Counted from the stretch's first letter, positions 51 through 57,032 are shown. The stretch is DNA of 64,000 nucleotides from Candidatus Nomurabacteria bacterium (GCA_023267215.1 JAHFNS010000002.1:192892-256891); one strand, 5' to 3'. Notes: a model not told the origin generated them from the letters alone. Numbers and translations: made by a program.

Positions 51-1343
51 TTATTTCAAGAAATTCTTATTTCTCAATTTCTTATGATAAGCAATAGCAA
101 AACGATGTGCCTCACTATTTGCTAACAGAATTTCTTTTTTGTATTTTTTTCCAAACGCCAGGCTTTGGGCGCTCTTAAAGCCTGGCGTTGAAGAGGAGGA
201 AAGAATAGCCTTTGCTTTGTGCCGATCATCTTTTAAGACAGAAAGAACCTCTATTTTTAAGCCCATTTTAGCCAAAACAGCCTTAGCTGTATTAATTTGG
301 GCTATTCCCCCATCTACAACGATAAGCCTTGGATATGACCATTCAGGGTGTAATAGACGCCTTTCTAGGACTTCTTTTAAAGCACCAGTGTCATTTGCAT
401 CGGTTTGAGTTCTGATTTTAAATTTCTTATATTCACTTTTTATTACTTCTCCATTTTCTACAACTACCATTACTCCAACCATATTTTTACCAGACATGTG
501 GGCTATATCGTATGCCTCAATGCGTGTTTCTCCTCCTTGTTGAGGAGGAGTGCCCTTTAGGGCGAGATGGTGATTTTTAGAATTATCACCCGGAACCCCC
601 TCTTCCACGAGAAGGGGAGCAAAAGAAGAATCTTGTTTTATCAAAGCCACATCATTAATATGTTGCAATGCAAAAAGTTGTCTTTTTATTTCCCCAGCTT
701 TTTCAAATTCTTTAACTTTCGCATACTCTTTCATTTCTTTTTTCAAATTACTCAAAATCTTTTTCTTCTTACCCAGAAAAAGCAACCTAATATTTTTGAT
801 ATTGTTTTTATTCTCTACTAAATATTCTGGCACTAATTTTATTTGTTTATAAAATTCATCTCTACCTTTTGTGCCTTTTTTATCATCAAAATAAGGAAAA
901 ATTTTCCTTACAATTTTCAAAGCCTCACGTAATTGATTACCATTTGGAAAAGGACCAAAGAAAGAATCATATTTTTCTTTGTTAAGTATCTTTCCTCGCA
1001 CTATGGCAACCTTTTTATCTTTGGTGATGCAAACATAATTAAAACTTTTATCAGATTTTTCTTTAGTATTATATTTAGGCTGATATTTTTTAATCAAAGA
1101 TGCTTCTAAAATAAGTGCTTCAAGCACACTATCCGTAACAACCCATTTTATTTTTTCTGCTTTAAAAATTAAATCTACTAAAAGAGGACCTCTGGTCTCT
1201 ATGAGATCTTTTCCAAAATAACTTTTGACCCTATCTTTAAGAGAAGTTGCCTTACCAATATATAAAATTTCTTTTCCTTTCTTAAAAAAGTAAACTCCGG
1301 GTTTATTTGGTAATTTTATTTTTTTTAGATATGAAATTTTCAT
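51..1343 (-). CDS. uvrC: Excinuclease ABC subunit C (UvrC), short form with an in-frame inserted hairpin element
   Basis: N-terminal GIY-YIG motif (GVYFFKKGKEILYIGKA...SYF). Endonuclease-domain motif ...IEAYDIAHMSG...V.VVV.NG. Directly downstream of uvrA and uvrB on the same strand. 430 aa, shorter than canonical UvrC. Confidence 0.85.
   Translation of the reverse strand: MKISYLKKIKLPNKPGVYFFKKGKEILYIGKATSLKDRVKSYFGKDLIETRGPLLVDLIFKAEKIKWVVTDSVLEALILEASLIKKYQPKYNTKEKSDKSFNYVCITKDKKVAIVRGKILNKEKYDSFFGPFPNGNQLREALKIVRKIFPYFDDKKGTKGRDEFYKQIKLVPEYLVENKNNIKNIRLLFLGKKKKILSNLKKEMKEYAKVKEFEKAGEIKRQLFALQHINDVALIKQDSSFAPLLVEEGVPGDNSKNHHLALKGTPPQQGGETRIEAYDIAHMSGKNMVGVMVVVENGEVIKSEYKKFKIRTQTDANDTGALKEVLERRLLHPEWSYPRLIVVDGGIAQINTAKAVLAKMGLKIEVLSVLKDDRHKAKAILSSSSTPGFKSAQSLAFGKKYKKEILLANSEAHRFAIAYHKKLRNKNFLK
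529..621. repeat. ~95-nt two-hairpin composite element in-frame in uvrC; homologous copy at 60729-60820 in murI
   Basis: About 80 percent nucleotide identity between the two copies. Both encode PLLVEEG..G...KNHLALKGTPPQ.GGE in the gene's reading frame. Confidence 0.8.
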
Positions 1344-1348
1344 GAGAA

Positions 1349-3973
1349 TTATTTTCGTAAAGCCTTTTTAAGATATTTACCTGTATAACTCTTACTATTG
1401 TTGGCTATATCTTCAGGTGTACCTTTTGCAACAAGATTGCCACCATTTGCTCCTCCTTCGGGACCAATATCTATAACATAATCCGAATTTTTAATAACAT
1501 CAAGGTTGTGCTCAATTAAAACAACTGTGTTTCCTTTTGAAACAAGTTTATTTAATACTTCTAAAAGTTTCACCACATCATCATAATGAAGCCCTACTGT
1601 TGGTTCATCAAGAAGATAAATAGTTTTTTCTAAGTGTGGACGATAAAGTTCACTAGAAATTTTTACACGCTGTGCTTCTCCCCCAGAAAGAGTTGTGGCG
1701 GATTGACCAAGTTCTAGATATCCTAAACCTACTCCCATAAGTGTATACAAGCGATCATAAATTGCAGGAATATCTTTAAAAAAGATTAACCCTTCTTCAA
1801 CTGTCATATGAAGTACTTCATAAATATTTTTTTTCTTATATTTTATGGTTAGTGTTTCTTTGTCAAAACGTTTACCATTACAAACGTCACAAGTAACATA
1901 AACTGTAGGTAAAAAATGCATTTCCACCGCAATTTGACCATTTCCCTCACAAGCTTCACAGCGTCCACCTTTTACGTTGAAAGAAAAACGGTTTGATTTC
2001 CATCCACGCAAACGTGCTTCTTCTGTTGTAGCAAATAAATCACGAATATGTGTAAATGCACCAGTATAAGTAGCTAGGTTAGAACGTGGAGTTCTACCAA
2101 TTGGAGATTGATCAATGAGAATTGCACGAGACAAATATTCAGTACCAGAAAAAGAAGAACAATTAAAAACTTTAGCTGTGCGATATTTTCTTTCATAATG
2201 AGCTTGAAGATTTTTATACAAAATCTCATACATAAAAGAACTTTTACCAGAACCAGATACTCCTGTTATAGAAGTCATCACCCCAAGGGGAACTTCAACA
2301 TTTAAATTTTTTATATTAAAAACTTTTCCACCAGCTATACGTAATACGCCTTTACTTTCACGACGTTTTTCTGGAATAGTAATTTTTTCTTCTTCACGTA
2401 AATAAGCAAGAGTTCTGGAATTACTTACATTTTTCTTTGCAGTTAATAATTCTTCCAACCATCCTGAAACAACAACTTTACCACCATGCACTCCAGCCTT
2501 AGGTCCAATATCTACTATATAATCAGACGCATAAATAGTGTCTTCATCATGTTCTACTATTATGATGGTATTACCTAAATCCCGTAGATTTTCCAACGTT
2601 TTTATCAAACGATCATTATCACGTTGGTGTAATCCTATGGTTGGTTCATCTAGCACATAGAGTGCACCAACCAATCTAGAACCAAGTTGTGATGCTAATC
2701 TTATACGCTGAGCTTCCCCACCAGACAAAGTATTTGCTTTACGGGAAAGTTGTAAATAATCAAGTCCCACATCTAACATAAATTGAAGTCGGGCTTCTAT
2801 TTCACGAACTACTGGAAGAGAAATTTCTTTTTCTTGATCTGAAAGTTTTAGTGTTTTGAAAAATTCTGCAGCTTCTTCTATTGAAAAAGTTGAAAGTTCT
2901 AAAATATTTACCCTTCCAGAAGCCGGGCTTTGGTGTCCCTTAAAGCCCGGCTTCGGAGAAGACAAAAAAACATTCAACGCTTCAGGTCGAAGTCTTGCTC
3001 CATGACATGCATCACAAGGTTCTTCCCCAAGAAAATATTTTGAACCTAATCCATGACAAACTTCACAAGCTCCATATGGAGAGTTAAAAGAGAAAAGTCT
3101 TGGCTCTATTTCAGGAAAAGAAAAACCATCGTTCTTACATGCAAATTTTGATGACATTACAAATTCCTCCTCACCAATTTTTATAGTAACAAGTCCTGCT
3201 GATTCTAAAAGAGCTCGTTCTAGTGCTTCAGCTAGTCTTGTACGACTTTCATCTTTTTTACTGAAAAACTCATGAACAGCAAAATGATCAACTAAAATAT
3301 CAATATTATGTGCTTTATTTTTAGATAAAATTATTTGCTCACGTAATTTTTTCATATCTCCATCTAAACGTATTTCAGAAAATCCTTTACCAAGTAAATC
3401 ATAAAGTAGTTGATAATATTCTCCTTTACGTCCGCGAACAACTGGAGAAAAAATATTAATTTCAGTTTCATTCCATTCTACTCCCATCACAGACCTTTTA
3501 TTTTTTTTAGTTTTACTAATTGTTTGTATTTTACCCAAAACAAAATTTAGAATTTCTTCATTAGAAAGTTTTTTAATTTCTTCACCACAATTAGGACAAT
3601 GTGGATGACCAATACGTGCATACATTACTCTTAAGTAATCATATATTTCGGTAATAGTTGCAACTGTTGAACGTGGGTTATTAGAACGAGACTTTTGATC
3701 AATGGAAATAGCTGGAGAAAGACCTGTTATCTCATCGATGTCTGGTTTCGGCATTTGATTTAAAAATTGTCTTGCATAAGAAGAGAGTGATTCTACATAC
3801 CTTCTTTGTCCCTCAGCAAAAATGGTATCAAAAGCAAGTGATGATTTCCCAGAGCCAGAAACACCAGTAATGACAACCATGCTATTACGTGGCATTTCTA
3901 CACTTATATTCTTTAAATTATGGGTTCTCGCCCCTTTTATTGTTATTTTATCTATGTTTTTATCTATTTTCAT
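1349..3973 (-). CDS. uvrA: Excinuclease ABC subunit A (UvrA)
   Basis: Two ABC ATPase modules with Walker A (GVSGSGKSS twice), LSGGE signature motifs and zinc-finger Cys pairs. 874 aa. Confidence 0.95.
2915..2958. repeat. Family-1 hairpin element (GAAGCCGGGCTTT...AAAGCCCGGCTTC) in-frame in uvrA
   Basis: Inverted repeat read directly. Encodes [17 protein letters not shown] in UvrA. Other copies at 157-188 (uvrC), 5267-5330 and 5675-5710 (uvrB), 26002-26049 (jag), 56987-57030 (intergenic). Confidence 0.75.
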
Positions 3974-4080
3974 ATATCTATATTTAAGCTTATAACGAAA
4001 CTACACCCAACCTTGTTCTTAGGGGGTGTCTATCAATATTTAGTTACTTTTAATATACCAGAAAGAGAATATTTTACAAA

Positions 4081-6375
4081 CTATTTTTCTGACCTTTCTT
4101 TTAGAACAATTATTTCATCGCGTAAAATTGCAGCTGTTTCAAAATCTAATTCTTTCACTGCTTTATTCATTTCACGCTCTTTAATTTTAATTATTTTATC
4201 ATAAACAACTTTATTACGTTCTTCGTCTGAAAGCATTGTATTTTTTATTGAATCCGACTCATTTTTTCCTTTATTGCTTTTTTCTTTTTTAAATGCTTTT
4301 TTGAATAACTCAATATCAAGTGACAGTTCAGTATTCACAGCTTTCCCATGTTCACTTTCCATTTCTTGTGTGATGTCTTTAATATTTTTTATTATTGTTT
4401 TTGGAGTAATACCATTTTCTTTATTATAAGCAAGCTGAATATTTCTACGACGAGTTGTTTCTCCTATCGCTCTATCCATAGAACCAGTCATTGTGTCGGC
4501 ATAAAGAATAACCTTACCTTCACTATTACGAGCAGCACGGCCAATGGTCTGAATCAAAGCTGTTTCTGAACGCAAAAACCCTTCTTTATCGGCATCTAAT
4601 ATACCAATCAAGGCTACTTCTGGTAAATCTAATCCTTCCCTTAGTAAGTTTACTCCAACCAATACATCAAACTCTCCTCTTCTAAATTGAGTAAGAATTT
4701 TTATTCTATCTATTGTTTTAATATCACTATGAAGATATTCAGCTTTAATCTTTTTGTCTTTTAAATAAAGAGATAGATCCTCTGCCATTTTTTTTGTTAG
4801 TGTTGTCGCTAAAACACGGAAACCTTTCTTGATTGTTTTCTCTGCTTCTTTTATAAAATCCTGAATCTGCCCGGGATAGTACTCAGAGGAGTATTCGCTA
4901 CGACCAGATAAAACTTGCCCTTCCAAGATAGAGTGCGAACGACGGCGAGCACTATCCCGGGCAGATTCTTCCGAGACAGGCCTTACTGAAATTTCTGGAT
5001 CTACAAGACCAGTCGGGCGAATTATTTGTTCTACCATTTGTTCGCTTTGAGTACGTTCTTGTTCACTAGGCGTTGCGCTAGTATAAACAACAGGACCAAT
5101 CTTTTCACTAAATTCTTCATATTTTAAAGGCCTATTATCCTTTGCTGAAGGTAGACGAAAACCATATTCCACAAGGGTATTTTTACGAGAAGCATCGCCT
5201 GCATACATACCCTGCAATTGTGGTAAGGTTACATGTGATTCATCAATAATTGTTAAAAAGTCTGGTCCCCCCGAAGCTGGGCTTAAGGACTTCTGTTTTT
5301 TATTACCTGCCCCTAAGCCCAGCTTCGGGGAAACGGGAAAGTAAGAAAGCAATGTCTCTGGTGGTTCACCTTCTTTTTTATCTGATAAATGTCTAGAATA
5401 ATTTTCTATGCCATTACAATATCCAACTTCTTTTATCATCGCCAAATCATAGTTAGTTCTTCTCTTTATACGCTCTGCTTCCAATAATTTTCCTTCTTTT
5501 TCAAATTTCTTTAATTGTTTGTTTAATTCTTTTTTTATTTCTACTAATGCTTTTTTCTTTTTTACATCTTCGGTAATAAAATGTTTAGCTGGAAAAATAA
5601 AAATGTCTTTTTTTTCTTCAATTATTTGGGAAGAAATTGGATCAATTTTTTTTATTTCACTCAAAACCGAATTTAAAGCTGGGCTTTGGGGATTCTTAAA
5701 GCCCAGCTTTTGAATACCAAATTCTATTTGATACATCATTGTTTCAGAAACTGGCATAAATTCTACCCTAGAACCAATAGAACGAAAGGTCCCTGGGGTT
5801 AAATCAACATTCGTACGTTCAAAATGAATCGCAATTAACTTTTTCATTAAAGTCATCCTATCCATTTTCATTCCAACCTTTAACTTCAAATTAACCTTTT
5901 CATATTCTTCTGGTGAACCTAAACCATAAATACAAGAAACAGATGCAACAATTATCACATCACGTCTAGTAAGTAGGGCTTGTGTGGTAGCGTGACGCAA
6001 GCGGTCTATCTCTTTATTTATCTGTGCATCTTTTTCTATATAAGTATCTGATGCAGGCATATATGCTTCCGGCTGATAATAATCATAATAAGAAACAAAA
6101 TAATGCACAGCAGCTTCTGGAAAAAATTCTCGAAATTCTGAAGCAAGTTGTGCAGCTAGGGTTTTATTATGAGCTATTACAAGTGTTGGTTTATTATATT
6201 TTGCTATTACATTAGCAACAGTAAAAGTCTTACCCGTGCCTGTAGCGCCGATCAATGTCTGCTTATTCATTCCCTTCTTAAGTCCTTCTAAAAGCTTTAA
6301 AATAGCCTTCGGTTGGTCTCCTGCGGGCTTAAAAGGACTATGTAATTTAAAAATACTCCCTTGATTTTCTACCAT
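4081..6375 (-). CDS. uvrB: Excinuclease ABC subunit B (UvrB), enlarged by three in-frame hairpin insertions
   Basis: Helicase motif I GATGTGKTFT. YYDYYQPEAY beta-hairpin region. C-terminal UvrB/UvrC interaction motif. 764 aa versus ~660 typical. Confidence 0.95.
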   Translation of the reverse strand: MVENQGSIFKLHSPFKPAGDQPKAILKLLEGLKKGMNKQTLIGATGTGKTFTVANVIAKYNKPTLVIAHNKTLAAQLASEFREFFPEAAVHYFVSYYDYYQPEAYMPASDTYIEKDAQINKEIDRLRHATTQALLTRRDVIIVASVSCIYGLGSPEEYEKVNLKLKVGMKMDRMTLMKKLIAIHFERTNVDLTPGTFRSIGSRVEFMPVSETMMYQIEFGIQKLGFKNPQSPALNSVLSEIKKIDPISSQIIEEKKDIFIFPAKHFITEDVKKKKALVEIKKELNKQLKKFEKEGKLLEAERIKRRTNYDLAMIKEVGYCNGIENYSRHLSDKKEGEPPETLLSYFPVSPKLGLGAGNKKQKSLSPASGGPDFLTIIDESHVTLPQLQGMYAGDASRKNTLVEYGFRLPSAKDNRPLKYEEFSEKIGPVVYTSATPSEQERTQSEQMVEQIIRPTGLVDPEISVRPVSEESARDSARRRSHSILEGQVLSGRSEYSSEYYPGQIQDFIKEAEKTIKKGFRVLATTLTKKMAEDLSLYLKDKKIKAEYLHSDIKTIDRIKILTQFRRGEFDVLVGVNLLREGLDLPEVALIGILDADKEGFLRSETALIQTIGRAARNSEGKVILYADTMTGSMDRAIGETTRRRNIQLAYNKENGITPKTIIKNIKDITQEMESEHGKAVNTELSLDIELFKKAFKKEKSNKGKNESDSIKNTMLSDEERNKVVYDKIIKIKEREMNKAVKELDFETAAILRDEIIVLKERSEK
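4866..4966. repeat. ~100-nt MITE-like element with 19-bp terminal inverted repeats (TCTGCCCGGGATAGTACTC / GAGCACTATCCCGGGCAGA) inserted in-frame in uvrB
   Basis: Inverted repeat read directly. Encodes VRPVSEESARDSARRRSHSILEGQVLSGRSEYSSEYYPGQI. The CCCGGGATAG segment resembles the family-2 core. Confidence 0.7.
5267..5330. repeat. Family-1 hairpin element with 20-bp arms (CCCCGAAGCTGGGCTTAAGG / CCTAAGCCCAGCTTCGGGG) in-frame in uvrB
   Basis: Seen in sequence. Encodes PKLGLGAGNKKQKSLSPASGGP. Confidence 0.8.
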
Positions 6376-7772: not shown

Positions 7773-10238
7773 CTATTTAACCTCTCCAAAATTGTCCCCT
7801 GAACCAAAATGCACCAAGAGAGGAATATCTGTTTTGTATTTTAAATATGACCTTTCTAGGACCGTTTGCATGGCATTTTCTATTATTTTTTGAGCCTCTC
7901 CCAGCACTCCCTCCTCTACTTCATAAACTAACTCATCATGTATTTGTAAAACAAGATGTGCCTTATCCAATAATTTTGCTTTTTCTAAATCTTCTTCAGC
8001 ATACCTGATGGCAAGTTTTATTATATCCGCAGTAGCTGTGCCTTGGACGGGAGCATTTATAGCTGTACGTTCTGCCATATTTTTCAAAAATGGAATTCTA
8101 GAATTTATATTCGGAAAATACCTACGTCTACCAAAGAGAGTTTCGGTATAATTATTTTTCATTGCAAAAATTTTTACTCCTTCTAAATAATCCCGCAAGC
8201 CAGAAAATTGATTGAAATAATTGTCATAAAATTTTTGAGCTTCTTCTCTAGTACCTCCTAAACTTTTACGCAAAGCTGAAACCCCCATACCATAAATGAT
8301 ACCGAAATTTATAACTTTCGCTTTGCGACGCATTTCAGCATCTACTTTATCTATCGGTACACCAAAAACAAATGAGGCCACTCCCGCATGAATATCTTTG
8401 CCTTCGCGGAAAATTGCTGTCATCTTTTTATCTCCCGAAAGCATCGCTGCTACGCGAAGCTCTATCTGGCTATAATCAAAAGCCACGAGTTTGCATCCTT
8501 CCCCCGCGATAAAACCATTCCTTATTTTTTTACCTAGCTCTGTTTTGATTGGTAAATTTTGTAAATTTGGATCTTGAGAAGAAAATCTTCCTGTGGTCGT
8601 GCCATTTTGTAAAAATTTAGCATGTAAACGACCATCTTCTGCAATCATCTTTGGAATCACATCAATATAAGTAGAAAGCAATTTCTGTAATTCCCGATAA
8701 GAAAGAATTTCTTTTATAATTGGATTATCTTCTTCAAGTTCTTCTAAGACAGAAACTTTCGTGGAAAAAGAACCACTAGCATTTTTCTTTTTACTTGACT
8801 TCATTCCCATTTTCCCAAAAAGAACTTCTCCCATTTGTTTTGGAGAATTGATATTAAATTCTATCCCGGCTATTTTATATATTTTAGCTGTTAGTTTATC
8901 TAACTCTTGGTGATATTCTTTTGATATTTTTTCAAAATATTCCTTGTCTATAAGAATGCCCCACTCCTGCATCTCTTTGACTATTGGTATTATTGGCTTC
9001 TCTATCTCTTCATATACTTTTTCTAATCCTTTTTCTTTCAGCTTTTTAAAGATATATTCATAGGCTTTTTCAAAAGAATCGGCGTTGGCAAAATGCAAAA
9101 TATCATCCTGTGTAGGATTGGTTATATCTGAATTTATAAGCCAGAGGGCAATAGCTGCTTCTTGAAACTTTTCTTCAGAAATTTCTACAGAGGAAATCGG
9201 AGAAAGCAAAGTTTTGTCGGCCTCAAAAGACGAATCAAGAGAATTTTCTGATGGTCTGGCTGGGGGTCGGGGCCCCAGAGAACCGAGGACCTCAGAAAAT
9301 TCTGCTGGATTTGTCTTTTGACTATTGCTAAAAAAGTTTTTTAGACGCGCAAATAAACTTCTAAACTCAAATAAAGAAAAAGTTGTTTCAATTTTCTTCA
9401 AATCTGCATTTTCCCAAAAAGTTTTCTCTGGCAATTTGAAATCTACTGGGGCATCTGTCCTGATTTTTGCTAAAGTTTTGGAAAACAAAGCTTCTTCTTC
9501 ATTATTTTTTATTAATTCTAAAATTCTTGGAGAAATACCTTTTTTTATAAAAACACTCTCATCTTTTTTAATTTTTTTATATATTTCTTCTATCGTTCCA
9601 AAATTTACAATCAAATTAGTAGCCGTTTTTTCTCCAATACCTTTGATTCCAATAATATTATCAGACGGATCACCTCGTAAACCTTTATAATCTGGTAAAA
9701 GTTTCGGCTTAAATCCAAATCTATCCATAACTTTTTCTTCGTCATATAAAATCGTATCATTGATTCCCTTCTTCAGGGTGTACACTTGCACTTTTTTATC
9801 ATCTATTAATTGCATCGTATCCATATCGCCCGAGGCAATGACTATGTTTATGTTTTTATCTTTTTTTAATTTCTCAACTATCGTACCTAATACATCATCT
9901 GCCTCAAAGCCTGGAGCATCATAAATAGGCACGTTAAAGGCCTCAAAAATTTGCCTAGAATTTTTTAACTGCAAAACAAGAGCATCATCCGTCTTAGCCC
10001 TACCTGCTTTGTATTGGTCATAAGCTTCGTGTCTAAAGGTCTTTTGCGGTAAATCATAACAAGCCACGATATAATCAGGTTTTAAATCTGTAATTATCTT
10101 CATCAGCATTGTAGAAAGCCCATAAAGCGCCCCTGTCGGTTCGCCTTTAGAAGACAAAAATTCAGGCAACGCATGATAAGCCCGATGTATTATCGCATGA
10201 GAATCTAACAACACTAATGTCTTTTTGTCTTTAGTCAT
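7773..10238 (-). CDS. polA: DNA polymerase I (5'-3' exonuclease plus family A polymerase)
   Basis: N-terminal 5'-nuclease motifs (LVLLDSHAIIHRAYHAL). Polymerase motifs RRKAKVINFGIIYGMG and QIHDELVYEV. 821 aa. Confidence 0.95.
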   Translation of the reverse strand: MTKDKKTLVLLDSHAIIHRAYHALPEFLSSKGEPTGALYGLSTMLMKIITDLKPDYIVACYDLPQKTFRHEAYDQYKAGRAKTDDALVLQLKNSRQIFEAFNVPIYDAPGFEADDVLGTIVEKLKKDKNINIVIASGDMDTMQLIDDKKVQVYTLKKGINDTILYDEEKVMDRFGFKPKLLPDYKGLRGDPSDNIIGIKGIGEKTATNLIVNFGTIEEIYKKIKKDESVFIKKGISPRILELIKNNEEEALFSKTLAKIRTDAPVDFKLPEKTFWENADLKKIETTFSLFEFRSLFARLKNFFSNSQKTNPAEFSEVLGSLGPRPPARPSENSLDSSFEADKTLLSPISSVEISEEKFQEAAIALWLINSDITNPTQDDILHFANADSFEKAYEYIFKKLKEKGLEKVYEEIEKPIIPIVKEMQEWGILIDKEYFEKISKEYHQELDKLTAKIYKIAGIEFNINSPKQMGEVLFGKMGMKSSKKKNASGSFSTKVSVLEELEEDNPIIKEILSYRELQKLLSTYIDVIPKMIAEDGRLHAKFLQNGTTTGRFSSQDPNLQNLPIKTELGKKIRNGFIAGEGCKLVAFDYSQIELRVAAMLSGDKKMTAIFREGKDIHAGVASFVFGVPIDKVDAEMRRKAKVINFGIIYGMGVSALRKSLGGTREEAQKFYDNYFNQFSGLRDYLEGVKIFAMKNNYTETLFGRRRYFPNINSRIPFLKNMAERTAINAPVQGTATADIIKLAIRYAEEDLEKAKLLDKAHLVLQIHDELVYEVEEGVLGEAQKIIENAMQTVLERSYLKYKTDIPLLVHFGSGDNFGEVK

Positions 10239-16317: not shown

Positions 16318-17505
16318 TTATATAATTTTTATAAATTTTCTTTTACCTATCTTAAATTTCATTCCACTTTGAGGAATAAAATTTACATCAGTTATTTTTT
16401 TATCTAAAGTAAGATCTGTTACAGCTCCTTCTTCTATAAGTCTTCTGAATTCACCCTTAGAAGCTAATATTTTATTCATTACTAAAATATCCATTAACAT
16501 TTTTCCACTCCCTAAGAGCTCAATCATTTCTTCTGGAATTTCTTTCTTTGAAAAAATATTTTCCCAATTCTTTTCTGCTTCTTCTGCTTTTCTCTCTCCA
16601 TTATAAAAAGAAACAATTTCTTTTGCCAAACGTTTCTTAAAAATCATTGGACTTTCACCATTTTCCATAGATTTTTTCATTTTTTCTATTTCACTCATTG
16701 ATACACGTGTTACTAATTCAAAATAATCCCAAATTACATCATCAATTATTGACATAACTTTTCCATACATATCATCTGGACTAGTAACTATTGGAATATA
16801 ATTTAAGAGACTCTTTCCCATTGGTTTTCCATCTGATCCAAGAAGTAATTTCATAGCAATAGCTGATTGAGCTTCTACGCCAAAAAGTGGCATCAATTTT
16901 CTTCCAGCAAGAAGATTAAAAGTTTGATCTGTACCACCAAGTTCTAAATCACATTCAAGAATCACTGAGTCATAACCTTGCATAATAGGATAAGACCATT
17001 CATCAAAACCAATAGTTTTCCCTTCATTAAAACGTTTTTTAAAAGTTTCTCTATCAAACATTTGTTGAACTGAGTAAGCCTTTGCCATACCTAAATATTT
17101 TTTTAGAGTAAGTTTATCAAGCCATTCTGAATTATGTTCTATTTTTGTTCCTTCTTTTAATACAGTTTTAAAAAATTGTTCTTTATATGTTTTTTCTTTT
17201 TCTTTAATTTCCTTCTCATTTGTTTCACCACGCATATCTACTTTATCTGAGTGATCACCAACAATAGTAGTAAAATCTCCAATAATTAAAGTAACCTGAT
17301 GCCCTAATTCTTGTAAGTCTCTTAATTTTCTATGTACTACACTATGACCCAAATGTAGATCTTTTCCAGTAACATCCGTACCGAGCTTAATATGAAGTTT
17401 TTTACCAGAAAGTAATTTCTTTTTTAATTCTTCTCGTCCAAAAATATCATGTACTCCACGAGTTAAAATCTCTTCTATTCTTTTTTCATCTGTAATAACC
17501 TTCAT
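16318..17505 (-). CDS. tyrS: Tyrosyl-tRNA synthetase
   Basis: Class I HIGH motif (DLHLGHSV) and KMSKS-like KPMGKS. C-terminal S4-like region. Confidence 0.9.
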   Translation of the reverse strand: MKVITDEKRIEEILTRGVHDIFGREELKKKLLSGKKLHIKLGTDVTGKDLHLGHSVVHRKLRDLQELGHQVTLIIGDFTTIVGDHSDKVDMRGETNEKEIKEKEKTYKEQFFKTVLKEGTKIEHNSEWLDKLTLKKYLGMAKAYSVQQMFDRETFKKRFNEGKTIGFDEWSYPIMQGYDSVILECDLELGGTDQTFNLLAGRKLMPLFGVEAQSAIAMKLLLGSDGKPMGKSLLNYIPIVTSPDDMYGKVMSIIDDVIWDYFELVTRVSMSEIEKMKKSMENGESPMIFKKRLAKEIVSFYNGERKAEEAEKNWENIFSKKEIPEEMIELLGSGKMLMDILVMNKILASKGEFRRLIEEGAVTDLTLDKKITDVNFIPQSGMKFKIGKRKFIKII

Positions 17506-21294: not shown

Positions 21295-21337
21295 AATTTT
21301 TCCCCTCTCCTTTATAAGGAGAGGGCTAGGGTGAGGT

Positions 21338-22435
21338 CTATCTATTCATTGGCATAATAAGATAAGTAAAAGAATTATCAGAAGCACCTGAAATGACCAT
21401 GGGTTTTGAAGGTTGATTTAATTTAATAGAAATACTATCTGAATTCATAGACTGGAAGCAATCTAAAAAATATTTATAATTAAATCCTAAATTTATTTCT
21501 TCCCCTTTTATAGCAGCATCTAAATATGTTTTATTTTCTCCAACATCGTTATTTTCAGAGGAAAGCTCAAAAACCTTTTCTTTGGGTGAAATTTTTAGAT
21601 TTATTTGATTAAATTTATCTGAAAAAATGTTTGAAATTTTAAGAGCATTTAAAAGATCTTGTTTTAAAACAACAGCTTCTGTTTTAAATTCTTTAGGTAT
21701 GATTTGTTTATAATCTGGGAAAATTCCATCGATCACCCTAGATGTAAGATAAACCCCATCAGAAGAAAAAGAAATTTGGTTTTTGTTAAAACAAACCTTA
21801 ACCACATCTTGTATTTCTCCAAAGATTCTCAATATTTCCGGTATATTTTTAAAAGGAATAAGTATTCCCCCAATCTCTTCTATCCCCTTAATTTTTACTT
21901 TTTTTTCTGCCAATCTAAAAGAATCCGTTGAAACAAAAATCAAATTATCTTCGTTGGAATATATATAAACACTAGAGATCTCTGGTTTTATATCAGAAAC
22001 AGAAGAACTATAATAAACACTTTTTATCCCTTCTATTAATTTCTTAGATTCCATCTCAAAAGTATTTCCTAAAACTTTTGGTATTGTTGGAAAATCATCA
22101 TACATCTGACCTTTTAATTTTATTCTATTTTTTTTAGTTTTAATTAGTAAATTTCCATCTTCACCATCAAGATAAATATTCTCATTTTGAAAAATATTAG
22201 AAAATATACCAACTAATATTGTGCCTGAAATGGCTACAACACCCTCTTTTTCAATTTTGGCTGGAATTTCTATCTCCACACCTAAACTCAAATTAGTAGA
22301 ACGAAGTTTTAATGTTTTTCCAGAAGCAATAAGTAATATAGAATTCAGAATAGGCAGGGTTAAATTTTTACCTGTTATTTTTTCTACTTGAATAATTGCA
22401 CTTTTTATTTTTTCCACATTGCATTCTAGTTTCAT
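21338..22435 (-). CDS. dnaN: DNA polymerase III beta sliding clamp
   Basis: 365 aa, three-domain clamp pattern, N-terminus MKLECNVEKIKSAI. Directly downstream of dnaA. Confidence 0.9.
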   Translation of the reverse strand: MKLECNVEKIKSAIIQVEKITGKNLTLPILNSILLIASGKTLKLRSTNLSLGVEIEIPAKIEKEGVVAISGTILVGIFSNIFQNENIYLDGEDGNLLIKTKKNRIKLKGQMYDDFPTIPKVLGNTFEMESKKLIEGIKSVYYSSSVSDIKPEISSVYIYSNEDNLIFVSTDSFRLAEKKVKIKGIEEIGGILIPFKNIPEILRIFGEIQDVVKVCFNKNQISFSSDGVYLTSRVIDGIFPDYKQIIPKEFKTEAVVLKQDLLNALKISNIFSDKFNQINLKISPKEKVFELSSENNDVGENKTYLDAAIKGEEINLGFNYKYFLDCFQSMNSDSISIKLNQPSKPMVISGASDNSFTYLIMPMNR

Positions 22436-22683
22436 ATGTTTATATATTATATATTTAATTTATTAATACTATTAAGACTGTGAATAAGTGGATAAATGAA
22501 TTTTATATATATAATATATGACTACTTTGTAATTTATTTTTATATTATATATATATTATCTTTTCCTAAAAATATATTTATTTTTTTTAAACACACTTTT
22601 GTTAATTTTTATACTATTTTATCAACAAGCCTTACTTTGATTAATACTACTTTATAACTATCTTATGATTTGTTTATCAACAG
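22436..22683. promoter_or_regulatory. Probable oriC: AT-rich unwinding region (TATATATA runs) plus DnaA-box-like 9-mers between dnaA and dnaN
   Basis: One-mismatch DnaA boxes GTGGATAAA (~22487), TGTGAATAA (~22478), TTATCAACA (~22650 and ~22672). Extreme AT content with alternating TA tracts. Confidence 0.6.
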
Positions 22684-24054
22684 CTATTTAAACAGGATTC
22701 TTATTTGTTCCAATTCTTGTAATAATTGTGGGTCGTTTTTAATATCTTCTTTTATTTTTAAATATGAATGTATGACTGTCGTGTGGTCTTTTCCTCCCAA
22801 TTTTTGTCCTATTAATGGATAAGAGACATTAAAATCTTCTCGAAGTAAATACATTACTACTTGTCTTGCTTTGACTATTTCTTTTCTTCGAGTTTTCTCA
22901 TAAATAGATGCTTCTTCTAGAGAATAATAATCGCTAACTGTTTTTACAACATCTTTTATTGCGACATTTTTTTTAGGTTTAATGTTATTTTTTAATAAAG
23001 CTTTAACTTCAGACACTGAAAGAACCTTATTTTTTAAGCGATATTGGCAGATTATAGTATTTAAACTACCTTCAAGTTCACGAATATTTCCTTGAATTGC
23101 CCCAGCGACGTATTCCATTATTTCTTGATCTAATTCTATTCCCGCTTCTCTTAGTTTCATTTTTAAGATTGCTAGACGAGATTCATATTCTGGCTCAGAA
23201 ACGTCTACAATCATTCCAGCTGCAAACCTAGATTTAAGTCGATCAGCTAATTCGGGAATATAATTTGGATGTTTGTCGGAAGAAAAGATGATTTGTTTGT
23301 TGTTTTCGTAGAAAGTGTTAAATGTGTGAAAAAGTTCTTCTTGAATTTTTTCCATTTTACCAATGAATTGGATATCATCTATAATCAAAAGATCATATTT
23401 ACGATATTTTTCCTTAAAAGAATTTGCTTTATTGTTTTGTAGAGAATTTATAAAATCAGTAGCAAATTTTTCTAAAGTTAAATAATGCACTTTTTTATTT
23501 GCATACTTGTCTTTTATAGAATTTCCGACAGCCTGGAGTAGGTGTGTTTTACCTAAGCCTGTTCCTCCGTAAACAAAAAATGGATTATATTTAGTACCAG
23601 GGTTTTCTATGATTGCCTGAGAAGCTGCATAAGCTAGCTCATTAAATGTTCCAACAATAAATGAATCAAAACGATAACGCGGATTTAAATTATCTTCTGG
23701 ATTGATATATAAGTCTCTTAAAGGTAATTCTTTATTTACATAAACTTCGTTAACCTTATTAACAGTCGGTTCTTGTTTTATAGCTTCTATTTTGGTAATA
23801 ACATACTCCACAGCTCTCATATTTTCATAGACATCAGCCATGGTTTTGGTTATTAATTTATGATATTTGTTTTTTAGCCAATCACGCACAAACTCGTTTG
23901 GCACTCCGACAAATATTATTCCCTCTTCTTCTTTTAGAATGCATGTATTTTTAAACCAAGTGCTAAAATTTGCCTTAGAAATACCTCCTTCTATTTCAAC
24001 TAAACAATTTTTCCACAGTTGCTTCGTATCCATGGGTAGGATTATACTACACAA
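22684..24054 (-). CDS. dnaA: Chromosomal replication initiator DnaA
   Basis: AAA+ Walker A GGTGLGKTHLLQAVGN. Walker B LLIIDDIQF. C-terminal DnaA-box binding HTH (GGKDHTTVIHS). Confidence 0.95.
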   Translation of the reverse strand: MCSIILPMDTKQLWKNCLVEIEGGISKANFSTWFKNTCILKEEEGIIFVGVPNEFVRDWLKNKYHKLITKTMADVYENMRAVEYVITKIEAIKQEPTVNKVNEVYVNKELPLRDLYINPEDNLNPRYRFDSFIVGTFNELAYAASQAIIENPGTKYNPFFVYGGTGLGKTHLLQAVGNSIKDKYANKKVHYLTLEKFATDFINSLQNNKANSFKEKYRKYDLLIIDDIQFIGKMEKIQEELFHTFNTFYENNKQIIFSSDKHPNYIPELADRLKSRFAAGMIVDVSEPEYESRLAILKMKLREAGIELDQEIMEYVAGAIQGNIRELEGSLNTIICQYRLKNKVLSVSEVKALLKNNIKPKKNVAIKDVVKTVSDYYSLEEASIYEKTRRKEIVKARQVVMYLLREDFNVSYPLIGQKLGGKDHTTVIHSYLKIKEDIKNDPQLLQELEQIRILFK

Positions 24055-24329: not shown

Positions 24330-24656
24330 ATGCTTCCTAAAAAAAATAGAGTTGATAAGAAAGGAATAGACCTTGTCTTTAAAGAAGGAAGGTTTATTAA
24401 TTCCCCTCTTTTTACATTTAAATTTATTTTAAATAATAAATTTCTCGAATCTCGTATTTCTTTTATCGTCCCTAAAAGTATAGCTAAACTGGCAGTCGAG
24501 AGAAATTCATTAAGAAGAAAAGGATATTTAGCGTTAGAAAAACATATAAAAGAATTTTCGTCTCATATTTTAGCCACTTTTATTTTTAAAAAGAAAGAAG
24601 AAGATATTTCAAAAATTGAAAATGAAATTAAAAATATTCTCAACAAAATTAATTAG
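24330..24656 (+). CDS. rnpA: RNase P protein component
   Basis: 108 aa basic protein directly after rpmH. Conserved order rpmH-rnpA-yidD-yidC. Confidence 0.8.
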   Translation: MLPKKNRVDKKGIDLVFKEGRFINSPLFTFKFILNNKFLESRISFIVPKSIAKLAVERNSLRRKGYLALEKHIKEFSSHILATFIFKKKEEDISKIENEIKNILNKIN

Positions 24657-24870
24657 CTTTTATCAAAAAATTATAGCCCCTCTTTTAAAAAAATTTTTAG
24701 AGAGTTTTGGGTTATTAAGAAACAATTCTTGCACTTTTTATCCTACTTGTTCAGAATATACCAGAGAAGCTATAAAAAAATATGGTATTTTAAAAGGTTC
24801 TTTTCTTGGTTTTTGGCGAATCCTTCGTTGTCATCCTTGGCAAAAGAATCACATTGACCCACTAAAGTAA
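24616..24870 (+). CDS. yidD: Membrane protein insertion efficiency factor YidD (true start probably an internal Met)
   Basis: Motif CTFYPTCSEYTREAI...RILRCHPW. Confidence 0.85.
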   Translation: MKMKLKIFSTKLISFYQKIIAPLLKKFLESFGLLRNNSCTFYPTCSEYTREAIKKYGILKGSFLGFWRILRCHPWQKNHIDPLK

Positions 24871-24972
24871 AAAACTAGAGTAGTGCTTTTTCACGGCTCG
24901 CACTCGAACCTGACAATGGTTTACAAAACTAATATTGCGTATGCCGAAAAAAGCACTACTCTAGTTTTTTTA
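24868..24972. repeat. Conserved-core hairpin element, copy 1
   Basis: Stem arms AAAAACTAGAGTAGTGCTTTTT / AAAAAGCACTACTCTAGTTTTT enclose the conserved ~55-nt core (tcACGGCTCGCACTCGAACCTGAcAATGGTTTACaAAacTAATATTGCGTATGccg). Sits directly after the yidD stop. Confidence 0.7.
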
Positions 24973-24996
24973 TCTGTTTTCGTATAGAATGAAAGA

Positions 24997-25755
24997 ATGC
25001 TGTCAAACATTTGGAATACTATCTTATATGCTCCACTTTTAAACGCTTTGGCGTTTTTAGTTTCTATTGTACCCAATGGGGATATTGGTATTGCCGTCAT
25101 TTTACTCACTATTTTTGTAAAAGTGATACTATTTCCTCTTTCTCAGCGTTCAATCGAAAGCCAAATAAAGATGAATTTACTTGCCCCGGAACTTAAAAAG
25201 ATAAAAGATAGTGGTACCTCAAAAGAAGAACAAGCCAAACAAACATTCGAACTTTATAAACACCACAAGACTAATCCTTTTTCTGGTTGTTTGTTGATTT
25301 TAATTCAAATCCCAATTATTTTTGCTCTATATTATGTTTTCTTAAAAGGAATAAATTTAGACGGAGGGATGCTTTATTCTTTTATTCATGTTCCAGAACA
25401 TATAAATATGAATTTTTTAGGAATTTTAGACATCAGCCAGAAAAATTTATTGATTTTAGCAGTACTTGCTGGATTGTCTCAATATTTCCAAGCGCTTCTT
25501 ATGCCTAAACCTATTGTTTCTGAAAACAAAGATGGTTCTTTTCAAGAAAATTTTACCAAGAGCATGCATACTCAAACAAAATACGTTTTTCCTTTTTTAA
25601 TTGGCTTTATTGCTTATAACGTTTCTGGAGCCGTTGCCTTGTATTGGATTACGAGTAATATATTTGCTATAGGTCAGCAAATTTATGCTAATAAAAAGAA
25701 AAAATTAGCCCTAGAAAACGCCAAGGATGTTTCTTGGAAAAATTCTCTTAAGTAA
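24997..25755 (+). CDS. yidC: Membrane protein insertase YidC (short Gram-positive-like form)
   Basis: Multi-TM protein with conserved YidC/Oxa1 core. Follows yidD. Confidence 0.85.
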   Translation: MLSNIWNTILYAPLLNALAFLVSIVPNGDIGIAVILLTIFVKVILFPLSQRSIESQIKMNLLAPELKKIKDSGTSKEEQAKQTFELYKHHKTNPFSGCLLILIQIPIIFALYYVFLKGINLDGGMLYSFIHVPEHINMNFLGILDISQKNLLILAVLAGLSQYFQALLMPKPIVSENKDGSFQENFTKSMHTQTKYVFPFLIGFIAYNVSGAVALYWITSNIFAIGQQIYANKKKKLALENAKDVSWKNSLK

Positions 25756-25769
25756 CATCTTTTAAATTT

Positions 25770-26300
25770 ATGAATAAAACAGAGATACAAAATTTAATAA
25801 AAGAACTTATAGATAAAACTACCATATCAGTAAATAAAATCTCTATTGATGAAGATAGGCCAACAACCTTAAGTGGAGATGAAAATAATACCATTTGGTT
25901 TGGAGTTGAAGTGAGTCAGCCACATTTCTTTTGGGATCGTGGTGGTGAAGCGCTTTTTGCCTTAAATCACATTGCTCGTAAAATAATTGAAAACAAAACT
26001 TCCCCTAAGCTGGGCTTAGGAGAGGGTTCTATTAAGCCTAGCTTGGGGGCACAAGGGTTAGGAATTTTAATAGACATAAATGGCTTTCAAAAAAAACGCA
26101 TTGAAAACATTCACGCGATAGCCCATATGATGGCTGAACGGGCTAGGTATTTTAAGTCAAATATAGAAATAGATCCAATGCCCGCTTTTGAACGTAGAGT
26201 AGTGCATGAATTTTTATCTAATGCTACTGATCTAAAAACTGAATCAGAGGGTGAAGGATACGCTCGTCGAGTAGTTATCAAATACACAGGGACAATTTAG
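25770..26300 (+). CDS. jag: Jag/KhpB R3H-domain RNA-binding protein
   Basis: C-terminal R3H-like ERRVVHEFLS. Conserved position after yidC. Carries an in-frame family-1 hairpin insertion (SPKLGLGEGSIKPSLGAQ). Confidence 0.75.
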   Translation: MNKTEIQNLIKELIDKTTISVNKISIDEDRPTTLSGDENNTIWFGVEVSQPHFFWDRGGEALFALNHIARKIIENKTSPKLGLGEGSIKPSLGAQGLGILIDINGFQKKRIENIHAIAHMMAERARYFKSNIEIDPMPAFERRVVHEFLSNATDLKTESEGEGYARRVVIKYTGTI

Positions 26301-26304
26301 AATT

Positions 26305-26384
26305 CACCTCATCCCCCGCCTTCTCTTTGTAAAGTAGAAGGAGCAAAAACCCTCTCCTTTATAAGGAGAGGGTAGGGTGAGGTT
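26305..26384. repeat. Composite structured element: outer stem ACCTCATCCC/GGGTGAGGT enclosing hairpin CCTTCT...AGAAGG and family-3 hairpin CCCTCTCCTTTATAAGGAGAGGG
   Basis: Seen directly in the sequence, between convergent jag and the first gene of the island. Near-identical family-3 unit at 21302-21337 and 44484-44521. Confidence 0.6.
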
Positions 26385-27704: not shown

Positions 27705-29036
27705 TTAAGGATATCTATAATATTTTATTCTAGATTTAAGTTTATCTGTTAATGGTCTTATTTGTGTAGGACTATTTGTATTTTGAGTGTCTAATACTTG
27801 TCCATCTTTTACATAAATCATTGTGTGCCCATCTGGTTCGCCATTTTCATTCGCTTTCCATCCCAACAAATCACCTGTATTTATTTTTGAATAATCAAAA
27901 GTTTTTCCATCTATTTTTGTAGTATTACCAGTTGAAAATATTTCAGCACTATTATTCCCCGGGCTTCCCAACCCAGCACATACATATACTTGAGAGACAA
28001 ATGAAGAACAATCAACATAAATAGTTTTACTATCTGTAGTGTTTCTTTTTTCTTTACTATATTCTGTTTGTGGTATGAATAGTTTTCCAATTGGCAAGAT
28101 AGCTTCTTTTCCACCTGTTGCATCGCAAGTGATGCCAAAATCATTTTTTAATATTGTTTTATCTATTGGTTTAAAAGGCAAAGATGATTCACCCCCGAGA
28201 CTTGTGATGGTTATATTAGCCGTTGGCATTTTTAAACATACATTGAGTAATGCCGGATTTAGAGTATTTAAAATGGCATAGGTGCCTAAGGTTATTACAA
28301 GACCCAATATAGCATGTGTAATTCTTTCCTTTCCCGCTTCTTTTGAGGAAATGAGCTCACTGGTCATATATTCCAATCCACCTATTACTATCATCACCAT
28401 AGCGAGGACTGCTGATATACCAATGATTAACTTAACCATTATGTTTAAATAATTTCCGAAAGGACAAGGATTGGTAGTCTCATTATATTGAGTATCGATT
28501 GATTCTAGCCCTGGTAAAGGAGCGAGTGGGGTGTATACAGTCTCTGTGGGGGTTATACAGGTTGTTTTATCAGCACTTGGTATTTCTGGTGATGTACACT
28601 TAAGTTGGGTTATTGGAGCTGGTGTTTGTGATGTAGGTGTTGGTGTGGAGGGAGTTGTTGGAGTAGCTGTATTAGTAGCACCCCATTTATTCACTGTGAC
28701 ATCTACCCATTTTTTTATTGAGTGATCTTTAAAATCCGTACAAGACATTGAGAAGTTTGTTGTTTCATAAAGAGAAGGAGTACTACTTCCCGAACTAGTA
28801 TAATTTCCAAAATCAGCATTTCCTGTATTTGATGTGGTTGTTATATTACAAAAAGTATAACCAGATATTGTCCATGTTATGTTTGTTTTATCACCAGATT
28901 TTATAGTTGAAGGTTCAGCTGTAATAGATGCAGAGAAAGTATTGTCTGCGAAGGTTTGCTGAAACGGAATAAAAAAGCTAAATAAAAATATTGTTAGATA
29001 TGAGAGGGCTATTATTTTTTTAAAAATATTTTTCAT
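27705..29036 (-). CDS. Membrane-anchored cell-wall hydrolase with C-terminal NlpC/P60 domain (functional analogue of VirB1/PrgK in Gram-positive T4SS)
   Basis: Signal peptide, secreted N-domain, Pro/Thr-rich linker (TPTTPSTPTPTSQTPAPI), internal TM segment. C-terminal NlpC/P60 catalytic pattern (CSSFVSQVY...GDLLGW...H.MIYV). Confidence 0.6.
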   Translation of the reverse strand: MKNIFKKIIALSYLTIFLFSFFIPFQQTFADNTFSASITAEPSTIKSGDKTNITWTISGYTFCNITTTSNTGNADFGNYTSSGSSTPSLYETTNFSMSCTDFKDHSIKKWVDVTVNKWGATNTATPTTPSTPTPTSQTPAPITQLKCTSPEIPSADKTTCITPTETVYTPLAPLPGLESIDTQYNETTNPCPFGNYLNIMVKLIIGISAVLAMVMIVIGGLEYMTSELISSKEAGKERITHAILGLVITLGTYAILNTLNPALLNVCLKMPTANITITSLGGESSLPFKPIDKTILKNDFGITCDATGGKEAILPIGKLFIPQTEYSKEKRNTTDSKTIYVDCSSFVSQVYVCAGLGSPGNNSAEIFSTGNTTKIDGKTFDYSKINTGDLLGWKANENGEPDGHTMIYVKDGQVLDTQNTNSPTQIRPLTDKLKSRIKYYRYP

Positions 29037-29037
29037 A

Positions 29038-30027
29038 TTAAAAATTTACTTGTATTTGTTTTGTTATACTTTGAAAAAGTGTATCAGTGTTTTCAACCAT
29101 AAGTTTAATTATAGAACTTCCAGATTGCCCCGCTTCTGGCTTGATAGCTAATATATTTTTAATATCTGGTGTTTGTATTTTGTTTCCATTCAAAAACCAA
29201 CTAAAAACAAGGCTACTTGAATTTATTTCTTGTGGTGAAAAGAAATATGGTTCGGCGACAAGAATTTTTCCATCTCTACTTATAGTGTATCCATCATTCA
29301 AACTATTTTCCCATTTTACCCCAAGTTTTGGATCATCCTCATAAAAAAGTATTTTTGGTTCTGACGTTTTTAAAATTATTCTTTTAGAAGTGTTGGTGCC
29401 TCCTCCAATGTCTGATACTGCTACCTCGACAGTGTTATCTTTATCTAAATAACTATTTTGAAAAATGAAATAATTTTTTCCCCAACCAGAAGAATCAAGT
29501 TGACTGTTGCCATCTTTTTTCCAAACATAAGATAGATTGTTTGTATTTACTTTATTGCCTTGATTGACTAGGTTTGGAATGGCCACTACTTTGAATTTTC
29601 CTTGACTAGGAGCCAGAGCTTTTCCTTTATAAAAAGGCGGGGTATAAGAATCATAAGCTTCCCACAGCAGATCCATATCCGCTATTGTTAGGGTCATTTT
29701 TTTTGAAATACTTTGTCCATCGACAGTATCTATTGTGGCAGATAAATCAGTAGTTGACCCCAAGCCTTCTGTTCTGAAAGAGAAAGATTTTTTACCGATT
29801 GCCTCAATCATTTTTTGACCATTAATAAACCAAGAAATATTAGCCTTATCGAGGTTGACCACATGACTACTTAATACTGCGTTTGTGTTTTGATTTGGTC
29901 CAGGGTATTCTGGTGAGATATTTAAAATAACGTCAGTATTACGTATTTGTGCATTAACAAAAAATCCAAAAAAAGTGGCTAGTACTATAAACAGAATTAT
30001 TAAACTTTTAAAATATTTCTTCTGCAT
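29038..30027 (-). CDS. Secreted hypothetical protein
   Basis: Signal peptide (LIILFIVLATFFGFFVNAQ). Beta-rich. Confidence 0.4.
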   Translation of the reverse strand: MQKKYFKSLIILFIVLATFFGFFVNAQIRNTDVILNISPEYPGPNQNTNAVLSSHVVNLDKANISWFINGQKMIEAIGKKSFSFRTEGLGSTTDLSATIDTVDGQSISKKMTLTIADMDLLWEAYDSYTPPFYKGKALAPSQGKFKVVAIPNLVNQGNKVNTNNLSYVWKKDGNSQLDSSGWGKNYFIFQNSYLDKDNTVEVAVSDIGGGTNTSKRIILKTSEPKILFYEDDPKLGVKWENSLNDGYTISRDGKILVAEPYFFSPQEINSSSLVFSWFLNGNKIQTPDIKNILAIKPEAGQSGSSIIKLMVENTDTLFQSITKQIQVNF

Positions 30028-30067
30028 CTTATCTATTATATATCAGCTAGAACCTAGAAACTAGAAC

Positions 30068-31918: not shown

Positions 31919-31932
31919 ATATTTTTTAGAAT

Positions 31933-32574: not shown

Positions 32575-32576
32575 AA

Positions 32577-32999: not shown

Positions 33000-33038
33000 A
33001 ATTTAATTATAAATCAGAAACAATCAATTACCTAGTAC

Positions 33039-56976: not shown

Positions 56977-57032
56977 AAGATTTTTTTAAGCTGGGCTTAA
57001 GGAAACTCTCTCCTAAGCCCAGCTTAGGGGCA

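Follow-up and report, generated by a model that had tools for sequence, protein, structure and literature searches.

How can conserved genes carry GC-rich palindromes without breaking their reading frames, and by what route might such palindromes reach them? These questions were raised by a 64,000-nucleotide stretch of a Candidatus Nomurabacteria genome (GCA_023267215.1 JAHFNS010000002.1:192892-256891), hereafter the window, which has a GC content of 33% and a coding share of 91%. The original prediction described six copies of a palindromic element there, termed Family-1, five of them lying in frame in uvrC, uvrA, uvrB (twice) and jag. We recovered all six copies, and we propose, with a probability of roughly 0.6, that Family-1 is selfish DNA of a non-autonomous kind, dependent on its hairpin, which permissive protein loops tolerate and in which it is translated.

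Family-1 elements are GC-rich palindromes of 36-64 bp, with a stem of 13-20 bp, a loop of 8-28 nt and the core AAGCYGGGCTT...AAGCCCRGCTT; their GC content is 47-62%, against 33% in the window. When the half-site AAGCTGGGCTTAAGG was searched across the window with at most three mismatches, 10 matches were obtained against 1.3 expected, and none of 100 shuffles reached 10 or more. A covariance model, R1, which was trained on 12 copies and run with filters off, matched exactly the six Family-1 copies in the 64 kb (52-59 bits, E values of 1e-13 to 1e-15), the best score elsewhere being 11 bits. Furthermore, all six copies fold as stable single-strand DNA hairpins (dG −14 to −23 kcal/mol, z −4.5 to −6.6), and for each copy an equally good fold was seen in 0 of 200 shuffles.

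Four of the six copies lie in the uvrB-uvrA-uvrC gene row (51..6375, minus strand), which makes up 10% of the window (binomial P = 0.0013). The uvrC copy (154..189, minus strand; amino acids (aa) 386-396, TPGFKSAQSLA) lies in the open reading frame (ORF) 51-1343(-) and has a 13-14 bp stem, AACGCCAGGCTTT / AAAGCCTGGCGTT; it departs from the Family-1 consensus at several positions, each matched by a change in the opposite arm. The uvrA copy (2915..2958, minus strand; aa 339-353 of ORF 1349-3973(-)) has the stem CCGAAGCCGGGCTTT / AAAGCCCGGCTTCTGG. Two copies were found in uvrB (ORF 4081-6375(-)): a short one at what we call site A (5675..5710, minus strand; aa 222-234, QKLGFKNPQSPAL), with a perfect 13-14 bp stem, and a long-form one at site B (5267..5330, minus strand; aa 349-370, SPKLGLGAGNKKQKSLSPASGG), where a 20-bp stem encloses the conserved A-rich loop GGGGCAGGTAATAAAAAACAGAAGTCC. 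The fifth copy occupies the interdomain linker of the jag/R3H gene (26002..26049, plus strand; aa 78-94, SPKLGLGEGSIKPSLGA; ORF 25770-26300(+)), with one mismatch in its stem. The sixth is intergenic (56987..57030, no strand assigned) and begins 2 nt past the stop codon of ORF 57033-58712(-). The ORFs that host the five copies are intact, and the insert peptides quoted in the original prediction were correct, as was the claim that either strand gives a similar peptide, for example PKLGLGEGSIKPSLG and PKLGLIEPSPKPSLG. With a coding share of 91%, random placement would itself put five of six copies in ORFs; this is no enrichment and means only that genes are not avoided.

Next, we analyzed whether the segments are insertions, by comparison with orthologues of known structure and with 78 non-redundant UvrB and 64 UvrA sequences from relatives at 71-89% identity. 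Against the solved structures, UvrB contains three extra segments (approximately aa 222-234, 348-371 and 468-501) and UvrA contains one of 15 residues, and the Bacillus, Thermus, Thermotoga and Mycobacterium proteins show gaps exactly at these segments. Among the relatives, UvrB site A is filled in 9 of 78 and empty in 69, site B is filled in 23 and site C, that of the third segment, in 40; the UvrA site is filled in 29 of 64. The near relative L001 (handles of this kind denote loci of relatives) has clean empty sites at uvrB A and B and in uvrC. Thus, orthologues of known structure from unrelated phyla and most close relatives are without the segments, and occupancy varies between relatives, indicating that those in uvrA, uvrB and uvrC are insertions. 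An ancestral origin and a chance origin were both rejected. The expectation that the inserts are lineage-specific therefore stood for the uvr genes but not for jag: in many of 120 Jag homologues, the interdomain linker holds some GC-rich palindrome, whose left junction always falls between AAAACT and (T)CCCC. Since it is so widespread at one left junction, the Jag-linker insertion is old.

UvrB had also been predicted to carry three Family-1 insertions and to be about 100 residues longer than normal. Three inserts and 106 extra residues, approximately 72 of which lie in the inserts, were indeed found, but the third insert (4863-4968, aa 470-505) belongs to a different repeat family. It is a 106-bp inverted repeat with 22-bp arms, GAATCTGCCCGGGATAGTACTC / GAGCACTATCCCGGGCAGATTC, encoding the peptide ...RRSHSILEGQVLSGRSEYSSEY; this peptide family occupies UvrB site C in many relatives and site B in P0003, L122-L125, L141, L160 and L171. 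The AlphaFold model of UvrB, built on a 32-sequence alignment, was poor (predicted local distance difference test, pLDDT, of 59) and drew the inserts as low-confidence coil; it was not used for surface mapping or fold searches. As separate observations on the host proteins, the window UvrA is approximately 115 residues short against the solved structures, its residues 312/313 aligning to 305/421 of 9gxk, and the missing stretch is presumably, roughly, the UvrA insertion domain. The window UvrC is also short (430 aa), and no match to a helix-hairpin-helix (HhH) domain was found in it.

All of the approximately 100 filled site-instances in the UvrB and UvrA orthologues keep the frame, have a length that is a multiple of three and are free of stops. 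UvrB ORFs were intact in 82 of 83 cases, the exception being a stop codon unrelated to any element; it lies in L139 at approximately 2690-2700, within the conserved YYDYYQPEAY motif (read as YYDY, stop, PEAY), and may be a sequencing error or mark a pseudogene. Each in-ORF copy leaves one to five of the six frames open, and 12 of the 13 Family-1-type copies inside ORFs use one and the same frame, K-x-G-[FL]...S-P-A (P of approximately 3e-4, as a rough estimate). The lone exception is site B of L003, where that frame has stops. A predicted insert-junction peptide is, for example, ...SYFPVSPKLGLGAGNK.... A frame pattern of this kind would be expected if selection acts on a translated loop that is hydrophilic and flexible.

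Comparison across genomes further showed that the same protein loops are filled by differing elements, at UvrB sites A, B and C, at one UvrA site, at one UvrC site and in the Jag linker; Family-1 is a local branch of a large coding-palindrome superfamily in Nomurabacteria/Paceibacteria. The UvrA site holds short Family-1 in the window, the sister family GAGGTCGGACCTC-AAGGGAGCCC-GAGGTCCGACCTC in L124, L130, L132 and L146, and long-form Family-1, whose loop GGGGCAGATAGTAAAAAACAAAAGTCCC is conserved, in L120, L134, L166, L191, L145 and L155; in L003, L122 and L177 it holds a CCCC..AAGGGG family (CCCCTT..AAGGGG). L142 has the long-form loop subfamily as well, there at UvrB site B. Across genomes, site B holds at least eight insert types; Family-1 fills it in the window, L003, L142 and L143, yet is missing from it in L001, L120 and L122, which are closer. 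Similarly, the UvrC site of the window copy is taken by a sister-family element in L124, and at UvrB site A of L148 (approximately 4550-4620) AAGGACGGTCCTT...AAGGACCGTCCTT is nested in the loop of a AGGTCGGAC...GTCCGACCT element. Family-1 proper is expanded in the window's lineage, with six copies in 64 kb of the window and two in 7.5 kb of L003, against four distinct copies in approximately 1.2 Mb of uvrB-anchored relatives. GC-rich hairpins in general (stem of at least 11 bp) number 190 in 1.24 Mb of relatives, approximately nine times the shuffled count, and 72% of them lie inside ORFs.

Look-alikes of the form GAAAAAAGCCGGGCTTT...AAAGCCCGGCTTTGGGG were also found in frame in long ORFs on contigs of Saccharibacteria, a different class of Patescibacteria (L041 973-1018 and 4564-4609; L080 7-52), either by homology or by convergence. 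A contig scan with AAGCYGGGCTTN{4,34}AAGCCCRGCTT gave, among the matches listed, mostly unrelated GC-rich genomes, where the bare stem is generic; Nomurabacteria, Magasanikbacteria and Saccharibacteria loci were among them as well, which says little on the distribution of the family. A viral-contig scan gave a single unrelated match of 46% GC, and thus no sign of a phage vector.

We then examined the stems themselves. In 12 aligned copies, all 13 core stem pairs are paired, 153 of the 156 cells being Watson-Crick and three G-T wobble. Changes in both arms were seen at five stem positions, and the covariation score was 0.364 against 0.171 in shuffles (none of 500 as high), where part of the 12 copies had been found by a search in which pairing was a requirement. 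The loop is conserved in long-form copies; their outer stems differ in each genome yet stay complementary. The stem at the Jag site reads AAGCTGGGCTTA in the window, with one mismatch, whereas it is perfect in L201 (AAACTGGGTTTA), L200 (AAGTCGGACTTAGGGG) and L202 (AAGTTAGACTTAGGGG). Single mismatches on the sense strand of the 190 hairpins comprised 16 G.T and 14 A.C. There is therefore no RNA-type wobble excess, and a symmetric DNA-level constraint, for example hairpin or cruciform recognition or arm-to-arm correction, is favoured over selection on mRNA structure. Upkeep of perfect stems could reflect turnover with re-insertion, ectopic conversion, correction within the palindrome, or selection. 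An intrinsic-terminator scan matched no Family-1 copy, the intergenic 56987-57030 included, and Rfam at the gathering threshold gave five tRNAs only in the window and no Family-1 match.

Stems are shared within a genome. AAGCYGGGCTT is common to the six window copies, AAGGTCGRACCTT occurs in three copies at different sites of L130, AAGGTCAGACCTT in two copies of L146, and AAGCCGGGCTTT in three copies in total on L041 and L080, separate contigs that are both labelled uncultured Candidatus Saccharibacteria. At one site, however, different genomes have different stems. Transfer of sequence between loci therefore appears to be required. The distribution at uvrB leads to a related conclusion. A crude neighbour-joining tree and pairwise identities group L001 with L003 to the exclusion of the window, UvrA being 95.5% identical between L001 and L003 and approximately 90% between either and the window. 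Nevertheless, Family-1 is present at UvrB sites A and B in both L003 and the window and at neither in L001. The site A copy of L003 is nearly identical to that of the window, whereas their site B copies differ, being of the long form in the window and of a short CCGG form, read in another internal frame, in L003. These patchy states on the tree agree with separate insertions or replacements at hot spots, or with a loss in L001, but not with simple vertical descent. Furthermore, a related family of nested palindromes of approximately 73 bp, with the ends AACCCC...GGGGGTT and the peptide NPSQPPLVRGGGIQSHPDKGDLGG, is present in L163 as three near-identical copies (8841-8885, 16466-16510 and 17015-17059) that lie in two genes over a span of less than 9 kb, one ORF having two of them, and once in L184 (7600-7644). 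The sequences of the L163 copies point to recent spread of this class of element.

Taken as selfish DNA, Family-1 copies would move between loci of a genome by transposition or ectopic conversion, through a DNA-level process that needs the hairpin or cruciform form and not a fixed sequence. Most landings would be genic because approximately 91% of the DNA is coding, and only those would survive that keep the frame, are free of stops and lie in permissive loops or linkers. The surviving copies would then be translated, nearly always in the K-x-G-[FL]...S-P-A frame, into short loops rich in Gly/Pro/Ser/Lys. We infer from these patterns that the elements are not useful but neutral or selfish; the mechanism of their spread and the enzyme behind it are likewise inferential.

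Several points weigh against this proposal. No consistent target-site duplication or defined termini were seen at filled versus empty sites or at the L163 near-identical copies, the relatives being too diverged for exact junctions. By Pfam, no transposase, RAYT (repetitive extragenic palindrome-associated tyrosine transposase), TnpB or homing endonuclease was found among the 52 ORFs of the window, nor any insertion sequence element, and the sole recombinase there is an ordinary Xer-type tyrosine recombinase (62189-63157). No pair of Family-1 copies is identical, and hence no very recent burst of the family is visible. The perfect stems at apparently orthologous Jag sites imply that the palindrome is actively maintained, which plain junk DNA would not predict. 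Clustering in uvrCAB possibly reflects local hopping or tolerance of large multi-domain proteins, but it could also mean function. The loci of relatives were anchored on uvrB and give a biased view of distribution, and translation of the copies appears probable from frame conservation alone.

The same observations were weighed under other explanations. The hairpins might be functional structures under selection, for example DNA cruciforms or mRNA hairpins, by which DNA-repair proteins and other multi-domain proteins are adjusted in expression, stability or co-translational folding; their spread would then be secondary. The stems kept perfect through compensatory changes at apparently orthologous sites would fit such a role, as would the four copies in uvrCAB and the frequent position of sites at interdomain junctions (the Jag linker and UvrB site B). 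However, domain junctions are also simply the best places to tolerate an insertion, most relatives are without any element at these sites, unrelated families interchange at one site, and the copies show neither a G.U excess on the sense strand nor terminator features; we therefore regard a functional origin as improbable. A local origin, in which template switching or fold-back inverted duplication at fragile sites makes palindromes that belong to no mobile family, would account for some filled and empty alleles that are only approximately eight residues apart, as if one arm had pre-existed (Jag SPTPGVGEKQEG vs SPTPRLGESPKQGVG..., and L130 site A). Such one-arm forms are equally explained as deletion remnants, though, and it is hard to see local events giving shared stems and loops to unlinked loci of one genome or repeating the loop GGGGCAGATAGTAAAAAACAAAAGTCCC in UvrA and UvrB of many genomes, which makes this origin very doubtful.

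CPR (candidate phyla radiation) bacteria are thought to depend on DNA uptake, and the copies in uvrA, uvrB and uvrC, with other families in polA and uvrD, recall uptake signals, which in Neisseria and Haemophilus are biased to genome-maintenance genes. Against this, there are only six copies per 64 kb, it is the structure that is conserved while the letters vary, and Family-1 is almost absent from the relatives, with four distinct copies in approximately 1.2 Mb; of the explanations considered here, an uptake role seemed to us the least credible. Finally, the elements might escape translation, through ribosome bypass, as with the byp elements of Magnusiomyces mitochondria, or through excision from the mRNA. 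The byps do look like GC-rich hairpin inserts in AT-rich coding sequence (PMC8811140). Nevertheless, all of the approximately 100 filled sites are a multiple of three and stop-free, with a strong preference for one reading frame. Neither constraint would follow from bypass or excision, and we give this explanation very little credence.

Known systems place the selfish-DNA proposal in context. The original prediction had likened Family-1 to the Rickettsia palindromic elements (RPEs), and as a description of behaviour alone this was borne out, the copies being palindromic, dispersed, in frame and read in a fixed frame. According to one account, RPE-1 to RPE-10 (Ogata et al.) are approximately 100-150 bp long, many lie in frame in unrelated housekeeping ORFs with a family-specific peptide and no known transposase, and they are believed to occupy positions at which the fold of the protein can accommodate an insertion (PMC10969869). 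Family-1 likewise is a set of dispersed palindromes in a reduced genome that is AT-rich; they lie in frame within ORFs unrelated to one another and give a conserved peptide. It differs in its length of 36-64 bp, its host (Candidatus Nomurabacteria/Paceibacterota, Patescibacteria, as judged by the sources of UvrB and Jag homologues, and not Rickettsiales), its strong GC richness on a 33% GC background, its freely covarying stems, in which structure and not sequence is conserved, and the repeated hits of the same protein loops by different members. Family-1 is thus no member of an RPE family, being set apart by size, composition and host without a consensus alignment. The claim that such behaviour had gone undescribed in CPR bacteria agreed with our literature search, which found no report but had little coverage of subscription journals and is weak evidence.

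Yeast mitochondrial GC clusters measure 30-60 bp, are mostly intergenic, carry AG/TAG terminal repeats and include in-frame insertions in var1 (PMC8811140). Like them, Family-1 elements are short GC-rich palindromes in an AT-rich compact genome, polymorphic and capable of lying in frame, with fast evolution, merging or nesting, and no dedicated transposase known; unlike them, they have a bacterial host, are mostly intragenic and show no AG/TAG flanking repeats. Family-1 therefore resembles mitochondrial GC clusters in anatomy yet belongs neither to them nor to the RPEs. The byps found in mitochondria of Magnusiomyces capitatus (Lang et al. 2014) are likewise short GC-rich hairpin inserts within coding sequence, but they are frame-breaking and ribosome-skipped (PMC8811140), whereas Family-1 inserts preserve the frame and are stop-free. 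Repetitive extragenic palindromic (REP) sequences and REPINs are 20-40 bp extragenic hairpins mobilised by RAYT, with a GTAG or CGTC tag at one end (PMC3733652). REPs are non-autonomous and act through single-strand hairpins, and the hairpin structure matters in both cases; Family-1, however, is intragenic in five of six copies, and inspection showed no GTAG/CGTC end tag on any of the six. Compared with MITEs (miniature transposable elements with inverted repeats), the whole Family-1 element is the inverted repeat and no consistent flanking direct repeat was seen, the relatives being too diverged for junctions. DNA uptake sequences and uptake signal sequences (DUS/USS) have an exact 9-12 bp core and approximately one copy per kb, in contrast to six per 64 kb with variable, covarying stems. 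In Nematomorpha mitochondrial genes, perfect inverted repeats reach 284 bp and both arms are native conserved protein (PMC6649704); there, too, palindromes lie inside genes and palindrome and protein are both preserved, but Family-1 forms added, dispensable loops of dispersed families.

Other palindromes were observed in the same genes and elsewhere in the window. A composite GC-rich element of approximately 90 bp occurs in uvrC at 532-621 (aa 241-271) and at 60728-60805 (ORF 60276-61217, Asp/Glu racemase-like), giving nearly the same peptide, PLLVEEG..NHLALKGTPPQ(Q/K)GGE, in two unrelated proteins; it is found twice in L183. The core GGTCTGGCCGGGATAGGGACCCGGRGATCCGAGGACC, with inverted repeats of 25-28 bp, lies in frame at 9230-9310 (polA), 47003-47092 (uvrD-like helicase) and 55858-55951 (CCA-adding/poly(A) polymerase-like); two of these proteins have the peptide (Q/E)VLGS(P/L)GP.. 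and the third has the opposite-strand reading. Small palindromes of the CCCCCTGACAAGGGGG type are in frame in several ORFs (33237-33294, 33693-33738, 55138-55202, 44829-44858 and 585-621), and related copies fill the UvrA hot spot of L003, L122 and L177. A 23-bp palindrome, CCCTCTCCTTtatAAGGAGAGGG, is intergenic at 21303-21325 and 26349-26373 and in frame (PSPYKGEG) at 44484-44506, within the rRNA adenine dimethylase ORF 44267-45178; copies also occur in L130, L132 and L166. A second UvrA site holds the palindrome CCCCGAAGGAAagagtacTTCCTACGGGG (peptide NPEGKSTSYGAG) in L001/L003 (for example L001 5495-5523), L120, L124, L148, L162, L191 (twice), L193 and L199; the second L191 copy is near the UvrA N-terminus, and the window UvrA is without this palindrome. 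As for neighbouring genes, 21338-24054 and 24330-26300 form a chromosomal origin-type neighbourhood (dnaN, dnaA, rnpA, yidC, jag), and approximately 27705-33000 holds a cluster resembling type IV secretion or conjugation genes (TraG-like ATPase, PrgI, type IV secretion system (T4SS) pilin, NlpC/P60).

A wider, more tentative possibility, to which we assign distinctly less than even chances, is that CPR/Patescibacteria have a bacterial counterpart of the mitochondrial GC clusters: a large, structure-defined, self-homogenising superfamily in which the same loops are targeted, the arms co-evolve and copies are alike within a genome. If true, this would imply an undescribed hairpin- or cruciform-specific DNA transaction, possibly carried out by a housekeeping enzyme and not a transposase, and a systematic source of protein length variation in CPR bacteria.

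To our knowledge, selfish palindromes that lie in frame have for a long time counted as almost peculiar to Rickettsia. A much smaller, GC-rich, structure-conserved analogue in an unrelated reduced-genome radiation suggests that compact AT-rich genomes are generally open to protein-coding selfish hairpins. It also suggests a mechanism by which some of the so far unexplained insertions and length differences of CPR proteins could have arisen, features that complicate annotation, alignment, phylogeny and structure prediction, and the inserts naturally map out where UvrA, UvrB, UvrC and other conserved proteins have permissive loops. Furthermore, similarity within genomes, divergence between genomes and strict Watson-Crick upkeep together make the mechanism of mobility or maintenance testable in organisms with few recognisable mobile-element enzymes.

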